From an uncultured Gammaproteobacteria bacterium (GTDB lineage Bacteria > Patescibacteriota > Patescibacteriia > Veblenbacterales > UBA10138), in contig CAYVOI010000001.1 of NCBI GenBank assembly GCA_964453605.1, positions 740,095 to 804,094 of the forward strand: DNA of 64,000 bases, read 5' to 3'. The translations under genes and the position numbers were made by a program. Shown piece by piece: positions 31,456 through 34,330 of this stretch. Position 1 is the stretch's first letter. Each line of letters begins with the position of its first letter. The notes beneath the pieces were generated by a model. The model was not told the DNA's origin, did no database searches, and saw nothing but the letters and a program-made list of their open reading frames with translations.

Positions 31456-31553
31456 TTATACCCCTACTAGGCGCTGAAACTCTGTTTCACTCATTACCTT
31501 AATCCCCAACTTTTTTGCTTTATCCAATTTACTCCCTGGGTTTTCACCCACCT
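31456..31553 (-). pseudogene. Diverged duplicate of the last ~31 codons of ligA (BRCT C-terminus), ...[31 protein letters not shown]
   Basis: Manual translation. The true ligA ends [30 protein letters not shown]. The 27-bp core is identical. The fragment is AT-richer at its 3' end. Confidence 0.55.
31523..31549. repeat. 27-bp perfect direct repeat tccaatttactccctgggttttcaccc, copy A
   Basis: Identical to 32397..32423, which lies inside the ligA 3' coding end. Confidence 0.85.
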
Positions 31554-31576
31554 GCCAGCTAAAAAAGTGTAAAGAG

Positions 31577-32308
31577 CTAGCTTAGCTGAGCGTACGCTAG
31601 CACACCAAAATGGTCAGACGGGTACGGTCTATGGCGCTGTCCTGGCACCACCCCATACCGATTGATACGCCAATCGCGAGTGAAAAAAATGGCATCGTAA
31701 CAAAACAAAGGTACGCCCAACCAATGCGTGGTGGGTTGTGGGTTAGGAACTGTCTGAAAGCCCGCCCGATAGAGCGTTCGCCACACCCGACTCCGCGGCC
31801 CAGAGTTAAAATCACCAGCTACTACCTTAGGCCCAGCCCCGGCTGCGTGCACCTGGGCTAGCAGCACGGCCAGCGCCTTACGCTTACCCGACAAGTTAAA
31901 AGCCAACGGCAGGTGAGTATTGTAAACCGTAAATGGCCTGGGATCTGAAAGGTACTTAAACCTTCCCCAGGTGCATATTCTTGGGTAGAGATCGTACCCA
32001 CGGCTGGGCTTAGCTGGGGTTGAGCTCAACCAAAAGCTACCCTGCTCAAGCAAAGTGACGGCGCTAGTGTTATAGAAAACAGCACAGTATTCGCCAGTGG
32101 TCTTACCATCGTCTCTGCCTACACCAATAAAGCTGTAGTTCAACAGATGCGCTTGTAAAAACTCGAGCTGTGGGGTCTTCGCTTCCTGCACACAAAAGAG
32201 ATCAGGCTGGGTTTGTAGTAAAATAGGTAGGCACAGCTCCCGTCTCTTGTGCCAAGACTTTTGGCTGAGGCTGACATCAACCTTGAGGTTCCAACTGATA
32301 AATCGCAT
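31577..32308 (-). CDS. Endonuclease/exonuclease/phosphatase (EEP) family protein
   Basis: SWNL...CVQE...GDFN...SDH motifs. GC ~50%. Bracketed by the 27-bp direct repeats. Confidence 0.7.
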   Translation of the reverse strand: MRFISWNLKVDVSLSQKSWHKRRELCLPILLQTQPDLFCVQEAKTPQLEFLQAHLLNYSFIGVGRDDGKTTGEYCAVFYNTSAVTLLEQGSFWLSSTPAKPSRGYDLYPRICTWGRFKYLSDPRPFTVYNTHLPLAFNLSGKRKALAVLLAQVHAAGAGPKVVAGDFNSGPRSRVWRTLYRAGFQTVPNPQPTTHWLGVPLFCYDAIFFTRDWRINRYGVVPGQRHRPYPSDHFGVLAYAQLS

Positions 32309-32332
32309 AATGCACCCGGCGAGCGCCTAAGG

Positions 32333-34330
32333 TTAGCGGACGAGTTTTAGCAAATCAGATTCAGCTAGTACTGTAAGGCCGAGCTTCTTCGCCTTGTCCA
32401 ATTTACTCCCTGGGTTTTCACCCGCTACAACGTAGTCTGTCTCTTTACTCACCGACTCACTCGTTCTGCCACCGAGGTCGCGAATACGGGCTTTGGCTTG
32501 TTCGCGAGTCATAGAGGTAAGTGTACCGGTGAGCACAAACGTTTTACCAGCGAGTTTACCCCGAGCTGGTCGAGGGGCTGGCTCAACCTTGAGCCCTAGT
32601 GCACGAAACTTTCCCAGCAGAGCTTTGGTCTGCTTGCGCGCAAAAAACTGCGCTAGGCTCTCTGCCACCACACTCCCCACCTGCGGCACGGCTTCAAAAT
32701 CAGCCTGAGATGCAGCTGACACCTGCTCCAAGGTACCAAAGTGCGAGGCCAGGTCACGTGCGGTTTCCTCGCCCACGTGGCGAATACCTAAAGCATTCAA
32801 GAAACGCTCTAAAGAAATGTGTTTACGGTCAGCGATGGCAGCAACTAAGTTACGCGCTGAAGTTTCAGCAAAACGTTCGAGGGGCGTAAGCTCTTCTTCT
32901 TTCAGGGTAAAAAAATCTGCCGGGTCCTGCACCAAACCAGTCTCCACCAAAAGGTCAACCGTTTTGCGACCTAAACCTTCAATGTCGAAGGCTCGCCGTG
33001 AAGCAAAATGGTACAACCCCTCGCGCGAGCGACCGGGGCAGCGTACATTAGAACAGTAGTGTGCCACCTCGCCAGCGCGCCGCACCACCCGTGAACCACA
33101 CACTGGGCATGCCTTTGGTATGGTAAACTTTTTTTCTTTCCCTGTGCGGAGCTTAGGCAACACCTGGACCACATCAGGAATAATGTCACCCGCTTTTTCT
33201 ATAATAACAGTATCGCCTATCTTCAGGTCCAGGCGATCAATTTCATCTTGGTTGTGGAGCGTAGCGCGCGACACCGTAGTACCAGCTACCCGGACAGGCG
33301 TAAGCCGAGCTACTGGTGTGAGCACACCGGTGCGGCCCACCTGTACCGTAATATCTTCCACTTTGGTAGTGGCCTGCTCGGCGGCGAACTTGTATGCCAG
33401 CATCCAGCGTTCGCTTTTGCCGACCACTCCAAGCCTGCGCTCCTGCGCAATATCGTTCACTACCAACACTGCGCCATCGGTTTGGTACGGCAGCTTCTCC
33501 CGTGCTGTTTCCCACTCTGCGACGTAGGCAGCCGCGGCCGTAAGGTCACGTAGCTCGCGGCAGTGGGCACTGGTTTTAAAGCCTAAGTCCTTCAACAGTT
33601 CATGTACCTCGGCGTGCGTTTTTTGTCCACAGTCGGTAATAAGCTCAAACGCGTAGAACTCCATTTTCCGTGAGGCAGCCGCGGCTGGGTCTAACTGGCG
33701 AATAGAGCCTGCCGCCAAGTTCCGAGGGTTAGCGTAGGGCGGCAAACCACGTTTAACTTGAGCCTCGTTAATACGCGCTAGCTCAGCTTTGGTGAGTACC
33801 ACTTCACCACGCACATCAAGACGCGTGGGCAACTTCCGCTTTACCGGTTCCAGCCTTAAGGGGATGCTCTCAATAGTCCTCAAATTCTGGGTAACGTCCT
33901 CCCCCACTACACCATCACCGCGCGTAGCCCCACGCGTGAACAAACCATGCTCATAGGTTAACACCATGGCCAGGCCATCCATCTTAAGCTCACCGTAGTA
34001 CCCCCGCACCGCTTCACCAAGGACCTTGCGGCTGCGCTGCTCCCAAGCCTTGACCTCGTCTAGCGAAAAAGCATCGTCAATTGAGAGCACGGGGCGCGGG
34101 TGCCTGACCTTGGTGAACTTGGCTAGTGCCTTACCCCCCACACGTTGGGTTGGCGAGTCGGGGGTAACAAGCTCGGGAAACTGTCGCTCCAGCTCGGCGA
34201 GCTCGTGCTTTAGGGAATCGAGCGCGGCGTCAGAAATCTCTTGCCGGTCCTCTACGTGGTAGAGGTAGCGGTGGTGGTTAATTTCCGCCCGCAGCCTGGC
34301 AATACGTTGGCGCGCCTCAGCTTTCGTCAT
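32333..34330 (-). CDS. ligA: NAD-dependent DNA ligase
   Basis: Adenylation motif KMDGLAMVL (KxDG), Zn finger CPVCGS...C, HhH and BRCT regions. 665 aa. Confidence 0.95.
32397..32423. repeat. 27-bp perfect direct repeat, copy B, inside the ligA 3' end
   Basis: See copy A at 31523..31549. Confidence 0.85.

Follow-up and report, generated by a model that had tools for sequence, protein, structure and literature searches.

How could a bacterium come to carry two 3' ends of one essential gene, with a single unrelated gene lodged between them? This question is raised by a 64 kb stretch of DNA (the window, by which the whole stretch is meant here) from a Patescibacterium (Candidate Phyla Radiation, CPR), which belongs to an 876-kb NCBI contig and has its closest ligA proteins in Patescibacteria assemblies. 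In the window, ligA, the gene for NAD-dependent DNA ligase, is followed by an endonuclease/exonuclease/phosphatase (EEP)-family gene and then by a second, stranded ligA tail, and each of the two tails is preceded by the same 27-bp sequence. DNA has been inserted into the end of ligA, as is evident from relatives in which the site is empty. In our favourable but guarded assessment, the arrangement would have arisen by stacking of a relative's ligA-gatC interval before the native one, through one homology-guided join and one illegitimate join.

The two tails of ligA and the gene between them

The ligA gene (32333-34330, minus strand; 665 aa, from the list of open reading frames (ORFs) and Pfam) encodes a complete set of domains (adenylation, OB, Zn-finger, HhH and BRCT, by Pfam), and the nearest LigA proteins, both from Patescibacteria, are 83% and 77% identical to its product. 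The EEP gene, gatC, argS and ileS are all encoded on the same strand. Within the window there are exactly two copies of the 27-mer TCCAATTTACTCCCTGGGTTTTCACCC, lying 874 bp apart, and no further copy with up to three mismatches was found there (none being expected from shuffled sequences). The first copy (32397-32423, minus strand) lies inside ligA, where it spans the codons ...G-E-N-P-G-S-K-L-D, while the second, an exact match (31523-31549, minus strand), forms the start of the stranded tail. Between the two copies, on the minus strand, are found only the ligA tail in use (endF, 32333-32396), which by its position would have arrived with the insert, a 24-nt spacer (32309-32332), the EEP-family gene (31577-32308; PF03372, 243 aa, 52% GC) and 27 nt designated x (31550-31576), which extend from the EEP stop codon to the second repeat copy. 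The insert thus amounts to 847 bp. The stranded tail (endR, 31456-31522, minus strand), which ends in ...KAKKLGIKVMSETEFQRLVGV and a stop codon at 31456-31458, continues in frame from the second 27-mer as an intact frame lying outside any gene, and it was recovered by tblastn with the ligA C-terminus (E 4.5e-10). No similarity to ligA was found upstream of this second copy, on the side of x. A preliminary description of this DNA had reported the exact pair of repeats, the continuation of the ligA frame past the second of them into an unused C-terminus and an EEP-family gene of about 50% GC as the sole gene between them, and these three statements hold at the values given here.

The stranded tail is followed by a hairpin terminator (31410-31441; from alignment to the relative's locus L089 and RNA folding), which it shares with a convergent gene, ORF161 (30911-31396, plus strand). 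The hairpin folds at -14 kcal/mol (z -2.2), and its counterpart in L089 at -21 kcal/mol (z -5.4). ORF161 is 58% identical over its full length to a 161-aa gene of L089 and has no match in Pfam, NCBIfam or PHROG. Further along are the native gatC promoter region (30734-30790, minus strand; TTGTCA-N18-TATACT), which is kept in relatives, then gatC (30434-30733, minus strand), the conserved downstream neighbour of ligA in the clade, and then gatA (28995-30431, minus strand). Since no terminator-like site was found by a terminator scan in the 24-nt spacer between ligA and the EEP gene, the latter is probably co-transcribed with ligA, with the transcript ending at the native hairpin.

The two copies of the tail can be aligned for 72 nt at 76% identity, and the similarity ends sharply on the ligA-upstream side of the 27-mer. 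When 60 nt are compared from the last two bases of the 27-mer onwards (35/60 identical, 58%), 25 bases differ and 15 of these 25 are at third codon positions (binomial p = 0.0056). This excess at third positions argues that both tails evolved separately as working coding ends; both are genuine ligA ends, diverged under purifying selection. Given an identity of 58% beyond the 27-mer, 27 identities in a row have a probability of about 5e-7, and the perfect repeat is accordingly not explained by residual similarity: its identity calls for a mechanistic explanation. Nor is the 27-mer a block conserved at the DNA level, because relatives carry at least six base differences from it. The GC content at third codon positions (GC3) is 0.41 in the stranded tail versus 0.52 in the tail in use, on 22 codons, and blocks within ligA go down to 0.39; the difference in codon usage and AT-richness earlier ascribed to the stranded tail is therefore weak and not significant.

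The cargo itself has been placed by domain and structure searches. The PF03372 match is full-length (residues 4-233 on profile positions 1-225 of 225; E 3.2e-18, 66.7 bits against a cut-off of 24.5), and the 243-aa protein has neither a signal peptide nor an additional domain. The best solved structure is PDB 4c1r, deposited as a mannosyl-6-phosphatase (E 3.3e-27, residues 17-170), with which the blocks IGVGRDDGK..GE and FWLS.TP..PS.G.D..PRIC.WG.FK are held in common. Other structure matches are 3mpr, 3g6s and 3l1w (Bacteroides EEP proteins), and those on the nuclease side are weak (Nocturnin E 0.04, exonuclease III E 0.18); the NCBIfam xth model reaches 19 bits where 99 are required, and the sole PHROG match is weak and of no known function. 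The structure 4c1r represents BT3783, for which phosphate release from phosphorylated sugars was assayed by Cuskin et al. (2015), and which was labelled a phosphatase in an experiment on a phosphorylated high-mannose N-glycan, with 3mpr as its apo form (PMC4978465). Thus, on the suggestion that the EEP protein be compared with nucleases and homing-like families, it was found to group with a sugar phosphatase instead. The enzyme most likely works in the cytoplasm as a phosphatase or phosphodiesterase, with a sugar phosphate as its substrate. The resemblance to BT3783-type phosphatases lies in the aligned region and the common blocks; the difference is that BT3783 was expressed in a "mature" form from residue 27 and belongs to a mannan-utilisation system (PMC4978465), whereas the insert encodes a leaderless, predicted enzyme of a Patescibacterium.

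The closest homologues of the EEP protein are at most 50% identical. Five of them (44-50%) have a readable context, in four unrelated settings, the EEP gene coming after truB, after hisS, after a UCP014422 gene (on two contigs) or after a hypothetical gene that has a serine recombinase nearby. No bracketing repeats and no spare ends of the upstream gene were found around these homologues (L002-L006), at either the DNA or the protein level, and nothing in their contexts suggests that the EEP family inserts itself.

Empty sites, polarity and the route of insertion

The gene order pilin genes-ligA-gatC-gatA-DsbA is kept in the clade, and the ligA-gatC spacer is variable. The gatC gene lies 10-42 bp after ligA in L007, L093 and L095 (LigA 63%, 73% and 75% identical, respectively). 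The spacer of L087 (LigA 83%) holds two convergent genes, a different cargo, while in L089 (LigA 77%) ligA is followed by the hairpin, the convergent 161-aa gene and then gatC. The contents of this spacer in the clade are thus nothing, ORF161, or a 340-aa gene together with a MoxR-type AAA gene. Neither an EEP gene nor a second ligA tail was found in any of the 80 ligA loci of genome representatives. The comparison of ligA 3' ends and their neighbours, which had been proposed as a check, therefore reveals empty sites (L089, L007, L093 and L095), in agreement with the earlier view that incoming DNA in the end of an essential gene supplied a replacement tail and stranded the old one; the counts speak against a fixed ancestral arrangement of EEP gene and both repeats. 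No same-species empty site was found, the ligA protein cluster having a single member and the next relative being 83% identical.

It had been held that the ancestral copy could not be determined from the window, which is true of the tail sequences, while the neighbouring genes now permit a provisional answer. The ORF161 gene and the hairpin of the window are homologous to those that come after ligA in L089, the nearest relative with this gene order, and in the window it is the stranded tail that precedes them, not the one in use. Because the hairpin and ORF161 are orthologous to those after ligA in L089, the stranded tail would provisionally be the native one, the tail in use having arrived with the insert. 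The simplest history would then be an ancestral order of ligA (ending in endR), hairpin, ORF161 and gatC, into which endF, the EEP gene and x were inserted after the 27-mer; a native-type ligA would end in ...IKVMSETEFQRLVGV and a stop codon directly before the hairpin and ORF161. Choosing the native tail by its sequence was attempted and abandoned: the identities to L089 (endF 35/60, endR 31/60) and to L087 (endF 36/60, endR 34/60) and the GC3 values are uninformative, and comparison of the C-termini of 54 relatives with both tails is ambiguous. The motif LTVL is common to the tail in use and to P0123, the 77% relative.

Under the stacking of a relative's interval before the native one, the 847 bp between the 27-mers would be a piece of the ligA-gatC interval of a related Patescibacterium, comprising the last 21 ligA codons, the EEP cargo and, probably, the opening portion of the gatC promoter. 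This piece would have been added to the recipient chromosome without replacing the recipient version. The homology-guided junction would fall within ligA where the 27-mer ends on its right side, keeping both register and reading frame, whereas at the illegitimate junction the end of the donor fragment would have been joined to the recipient ligA 27 bp upstream of the first junction. This offset of 27 bp would create the direct repeat and leave the recipient tail, its terminator and ORF161 intact downstream. What is found at the locus has the corresponding form, one junction being in register and in frame with ligA and the other (between x and the 27-mer) having no ligA similarity upstream. The EEP gene would be a passive cargo with neither promoter nor terminator of its own, read through from ligA.

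Two processes may be considered for such an event, namely homology-facilitated illegitimate recombination (HFIR) after DNA uptake, and a replicative template switch onto donor DNA and back; they cannot be told apart here. A template switch would make both 27-mers recipient copies, and would thereby explain their identity even if the donor did not share the sequence. Type IV pili can play a role in DNA uptake, and the window encodes PilB/PilT-type ATPases, PilC, PilM, PilO, a prepilin peptidase, pilins and RecO, while recA, comEC and dprA lie outside the 64 kb. RecA pairing needs 25-35 bp of identity, and about 26 bp permits strand exchange (PMC6382021), a scale that the 27-bp repeat matches. 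The same source lists three species capable of natural transformation in which HFIR has been documented (PMC6382021).

The distal end of the insert was approached through a single question specified beforehand: is x the start of what followed the EEP gene in a donor ordered ligA-EEP-gatC? The gatC promoter is recognisable in the window, L087, L093 and L095 as TTGTCA-N17/18-TATACT. When x (31550-31576, minus strand; CTCTTTACACTTTTTTAGCTGGCAGGT) is aligned with the window gatC upstream region (TCTTTTGTCAAGGGTCTAGCTGGCCAGGT, continued by ATACT beyond the junction), x reads CTCTTTACAC-TTTTT-TAGCTGGCAGGT and the window promoter TCTTTTGTCA-AGGGTC-TAGCTGGCCAGGT followed by ATACT, the two being colinear over all of x. 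Thus, x resembles the -35 box and spacer of the gatC promoter, with the junction to the 27-mer at the first base of the -10 box (shuffle p of 0.007 for local and 0.0025 for semiglobal alignment, against this one pre-specified target). That x is part of a gatC promoter, and so marks where the donor fragment ends and the illegitimate join begins, is only suggestive, because some five further sites of the window reach an equal score against x. A donor ligA-EEP-gatC allele would be expected to carry a gatC promoter reading CTCTTTACAC...GGCAGGTATACT.

Several points weigh against this account. The likeness of x to the gatC promoter is modest and is not unique in the window. The tail sequences do not tell native from foreign, and polarity comes from position only. 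No donor was found in the collections searched, the closest EEP homologue being only 50% identical, and the search for a recombinase covered only 64 kb of the genome. In classical HFIR, the illegitimate joint usually deletes recipient DNA and does not duplicate it; duplication rather than deletion would require a replicative step or two sister molecules. Finally, an exact 27-bp repeat with homology on one side only resembles an att core, that of phage phiEf11 being 27 nt long according to the accessible part of PMC12540744.

A second locus, and competing explanations

A comparable arrangement is present 18 kb from the ligA locus, in the spacer (11848-13474) between argS (13475-15205, minus strand) and ileS (8929-11847, minus strand). 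A chimeric segment (12921-13060, minus strand), defined by a three-way alignment, joins a beginning of ileS to a spare tail of argS. Its 27-codon frame (12921-13004, minus strand) consists of 13 codons of the ileS start (MLKSPEFEEKVLK) followed by the spare argS tail, with the fusion point at GTGCTGAAG; the copied ileS start and about 55 nt upstream of it give 62 nt at 79% identity to the ileS promoter and start. The spare argS tail reads HGLGILGIKVVEQM and stop, against HGLSVLGIGVVEQM and stop in the tail in use, and was recovered by tblastn with the ArgRS C-terminus (E 1.5e-5). It is followed by a strong hairpin (-27 kcal/mol, z -5.9) and then by the convergent ORF293 (11979-12860, plus strand; 293 aa, no Pfam match), while the other unit of the spacer holds a Cys-rich ORF of 71 aa (13125-13340, plus strand).

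Both loci have the same layout: an upstream gene with tail A, cargo 1 and the beginning of a downstream gene, joined to tail B, a terminator, cargo 2 and the downstream gene. The order is the one expected of a complete intergenic interval duplicated in tandem, but with a different allele in each unit. At argS/ileS, the distal end of the first unit is, to judge by the 62-nt match, unmistakably a copied ileS promoter with 13 codons, which supports the common layout much more strongly than x does. The junction GTGCTGAAG is unrelated to the ligA 27-mer, and the three-way alignment contains no exact core at this locus; unrelated junctions at the two loci argue against a single site-specific enzyme. 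In 19 relatives (loci L096-L154), the argS-ileS spacer ranges from 20 to 5,041 bp and holds different genes in each one examined, L096 for example having a sigma-70-like gene there and L097 two small ORFs, and no spare ends were found in any of these 19 spacers. The ligA-gatC and argS-ileS intervals are both hotspots of gene content in the clade.

A scan for spare ends over 170 loci (1.71 Mb) returned C-terminal scars only at ligA and argS of the window, its other matches being N-terminal pilin paralogues and one near-identical N-terminal repeat in L058. The last is a stretch of 46 aa (8132-8269 of L058, a non-Patescibacteria ligA locus) that is 97.8% identical to the N-terminus of a 708-aa ORF (8280-10406) starting 11 bp downstream, and it may be a duplication of the start region or a miscalled start. 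In the window, a tRNA-Asp gene (23094-23169) is accompanied by an identical copy of its first 25 nt at 22991-23015, 103 nt upstream, and by an identical copy of its last 41 nt at 23222-23262, 93 nt downstream; only the middle copy in the region 22991-23262 is called as a tRNA, and between the flanks and spacers of the fragments only an 11-nt match was found. These fragments may be a third spare-end scar.

Other repeats were also recorded. A perfect tandem duplication with a unit of 603 bp carries a 157-aa type IV pilin gene (41614-42087 and 42217-42690, minus strand), the two proteins being identical. Three DsbA/thioredoxin-like paralogues (25766-26371, 26376-27185 and 28210-28977) surround a thioredoxin-reductase-like gene (region 25766-28977), and their C-terminal similarity, with a 76-nt repeat at 72% identity (26019-26094 and 28481-28556), looks like ordinary paralogy. 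A 2,313-aa ORF (53001-59942) contains repeated motifs of 36-38 nt (CTTTACCTACGACGC...), which is consistent with an Rhs/YD-repeat-type protein. Outside the window, in L005 (contig Ga0613823_004774; region 6391-7140, with an EEP homologue upstream), a tRNA-Gln gene (6391-6464) precedes a small GIY-YIG gene (about 6571-6827), beyond which lie a diverged repeat of the tRNA-Gln 3' end (6955-6986, 81% identical), a perfect hairpin and a further fragment (7121-7137), so that a single-gene insert is bracketed by repeats of a tRNA end.

The alternative that survives best, possible but in our view doubtful, is that the insert is a minimal, cis-mobilisable integrative cassette, dependent on a recombinase gene at some other locus, or what is left of a larger island after loss of its integrase module, with the 27-mer as the att core, endF as the P' arm that repaired ligA and endR as the displaced B' arm. 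Direct repeats do bracket the insert, a replacement end is supplied and the native end (by synteny with L089) would be the stranded one; the same topology is described for e14, whose insertion into icd leaves icdC as a remnant (PMC6379469, PMC13626634). The exactness of the repeat, the homology on one side only and the empty sites in relatives agree with such a cassette, as does a core of 27 nt, which is ordinary for phage att sites (PMC12540744), and the GIY-YIG gene bracketed by tRNA-Gln ends in L005 indicates that tiny bracketed insertions occur in the group. However, the features that would identify an element of this kind are lacking in the searches made. No integrase, transposase or recombinase domain was found within the 874 bp, and none in another 30 large window ORFs, which are housekeeping and type IV pilus genes, the smaller window ORFs being unscanned. 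Neither the unit nor the 27-mer was found again in the searches of other genomes, phages and plasmids: a search of 2.9 million viral contigs and of JGI metagenome contigs gave no exact match to the 27-mer, no EEP relatives were found in viral contigs, nothing was found for the 1-kb region against plasmids, and the collections searched hold no other genome in which ligA and gatC are separated by an EEP gene. The idea that the 27-mer might be a widespread genomic repeat finds no support in these searches or in its two window copies. Further, the nearest context-readable EEP homologues are in four unrelated places without repeats, the arm beside the core looks like a scrap of a neighbour gene's promoter, and the argS/ileS locus, where the junction differs and an exact core is missing, would call for another specificity. 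An integron gene cassette was considered separately and rejected, with no integrase domain in the scanned window ORFs and no attC-like structure reported after the ORF (no inverted repeat was reported in the 27 nt that follow it, a formal attC model search not having been run). Of the earlier likening of the locus to an element landing in the manner of an att-site integrant, the insertion therefore stands on the empty sites, whereas the mobile element is not supported, in view of the lack of a recombinase in the insert and the larger window ORFs, the phosphatase-like cargo and the homologues without repeats.

A reversed polarity, which we regard as distinctly unlikely, would make ligA with endF, the EEP gene and gatC the resident order, and the 27-mer with endR, the terminator, ORF161 and the gatC promoter the incoming DNA, anchored by homology on the gatC side. 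A symmetric tandem of two alleles does not by itself reveal which unit is resident, and endF shares LTVL with P0123 (77%) and is marginally nearer to L089 (35/60 versus 31/60). This polarity, however, needs a chance match of 27/27 beside 58% identity over the next 60 bases, with no crossover to explain it; moreover, ORF161 and the hairpin are common to the window and L089, and the EEP gene stands beside ligA in no relative.

It is very improbable that the arrangement is an assembly artefact, with two strain variants threaded in series, or a tandem duplication diverged in place. The DNA does come from a metagenome-assembled genome, and the window does hold the perfect tandem pilin duplication. 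The whole arrangement, however, is 100% identical over 14 kb in a Logan contig (run SRR12313480), so that two assemblies, possibly from the same reads, contain the junction of x and the 27-mer, one being the 876-kb NCBI contig and the other the Logan contig. The bases flanking the 27-mers differ on both sides; if the Logan contig was built from 31-mers, the k of that resource, there is hence no 30-mer common to the two paths through the repeat, and all k-mers of the junction must exist in the reads. Divergence in place is excluded by the perfect 27-mer beside 58% identity (p of about 5e-7) and by the third-position excess, which a copy relieved of selection would not be expected to have.

Scarcely credible is a homing-type nuclease that cuts the ligA 3' ends of naive genomes and brings a resistant tail, since, although the EEP superfamily includes DNA endonucleases, the insert brings a recoded end of its target gene, a common trait of free-standing homing genes, and the catalytic motifs appear intact with the whole Pfam profile covered, the nearest characterised relative is a sugar phosphatase (E 3e-27, against E 0.18 for exonuclease III) and not a member of a nuclease family, the EEP domain occupies residues 4-233 of 243 aa with no added DNA-binding domain, the nearest context-readable homologues lie away from ligA without spare ends, the gene is found at ligA here only and not sporadically at the same site, repair-mediated homing would leave no target duplication, and the 27-mer, intact twice in the genome, is evidently not cut.

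Known systems and meaning for the lineage

A replacement end together with a stranded native end is the classical scar of phage or island integration into protein genes. The best-known parallel is e14 (or phage 21) in the icd gene of E. coli, which resembles the ligA locus in the replacement end, the stranded original end and the direct repeats that flank the insert, and e14 encodes its own integrase. The incoming DNA there gives icd a slightly different 3' end and strands icdC, with flanking direct repeats (PMC6379469, PMC13626634); the e14 deletion is about 15 kb, and e14 excises under the SOS response (PMC13626634). The ligA insert differs in its 847 bp, its one cargo gene, the absence of a recombinase and a far end that looks like promoter scrap, and no second unit of it was found.

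HFIR is closer in form. It has reportedly been described in natural transformation by de Vries and Wackernagel in 2002, by Prudhomme et al. in 2002 and by Meier and Wackernagel in 2003 (cited in PMC6382021). It is a phenomenon of laboratory crosses that usually replaces or deletes recipient DNA, and it depends on RecA and a short block of identity. The likeness lies in one homologous anchor, one illegitimate joint, a short identical block and the lack of an element-encoded enzyme. The ligA event differs in that it keeps the recipient allele and duplicates 27 bp, in that it is natural and concerns an uncultured small-genome bacterium, and in that its layout recurs at argS/ileS. On the balance of this evidence, the ligA locus would be a natural example of additive, homology-anchored illegitimate recombination in such a bacterium, a view which we hold with some reserve.

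Two further systems share single features with the locus. Cis-mobilisable elements (CIMEs; ICESt1/CIME of Streptococcus thermophilus) are short cargoes between direct repeats at the end of a conserved gene, without a recombination module, and they share att sites with a resident integrative element able to mobilise them. The ligA insert is likewise a repeat-bracketed cargo without a recombination module, but neither a partner element nor an extra 27-mer appeared in the window, viral and JGI searches. In polymorphic toxin loci, with the orphan modules of Rhs/CdiA, a new 3' end with an accompanying gene is inserted after a conserved motif and the old end is displaced downstream as an orphan, which keeps the conserved motif at its start. 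There, the exchange of ends changes toxin and immunity, whereas the ligA tails are equivalent ends of a BRCT domain and the accompanying gene is unrelated to ligA. The ligA locus differs from the classical scar in its tiny insert with a single passive cargo gene and no recombinase, in a far end that is apparently promoter scrap and in a second, sequence-unrelated locus of the same layout within 64 kb. For genome annotation, this implies that a direct repeat with a duplicated gene end is insufficient for calling a mobile element or an att site.

Patescibacteria have tiny genomes and are not growable alone, and gene acquisition by them is, to our knowledge, poorly documented. The ligA locus provides a clean natural record of one acquisition, in which the donor-type tail, the cargo, both junctions and the native allele are readable and relatives give the empty site. 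It indicates that an essential ligase can exchange its last 21 codons for a relative's version without harm, and that a promoterless gene can come under the transcription of a housekeeping gene by such an insertion. A wider proposal, which we offer tentatively and think unlikely as it stands, is that the lineage gains genes by additive recombination between diverged relatives, a donor spacer being stacked before the resident one at hotspots and leaving spare ends; three candidate scars occur in 64 kb (ligA, argS/ileS and possibly tRNA-Asp) versus none in 1.65 Mb of comparison loci, which are a non-random sample of genomes. If this were true, the scars would point to a distinct mechanism that acts repeatedly, or else to a single recent episode of recombination between strains. 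The exact 27-bp repeat would have been left by a minimal pairing block, and short direct repeats could let either allele be lost later, making for a reversible trial of new cargo. If argS/ileS and tRNA-Asp share the process seen at ligA, spare gene ends could serve as a searchable marker of gene gain through recombination in bacteria that have not been cultured, and the polarity and relative age of the individual events would be readable from them.

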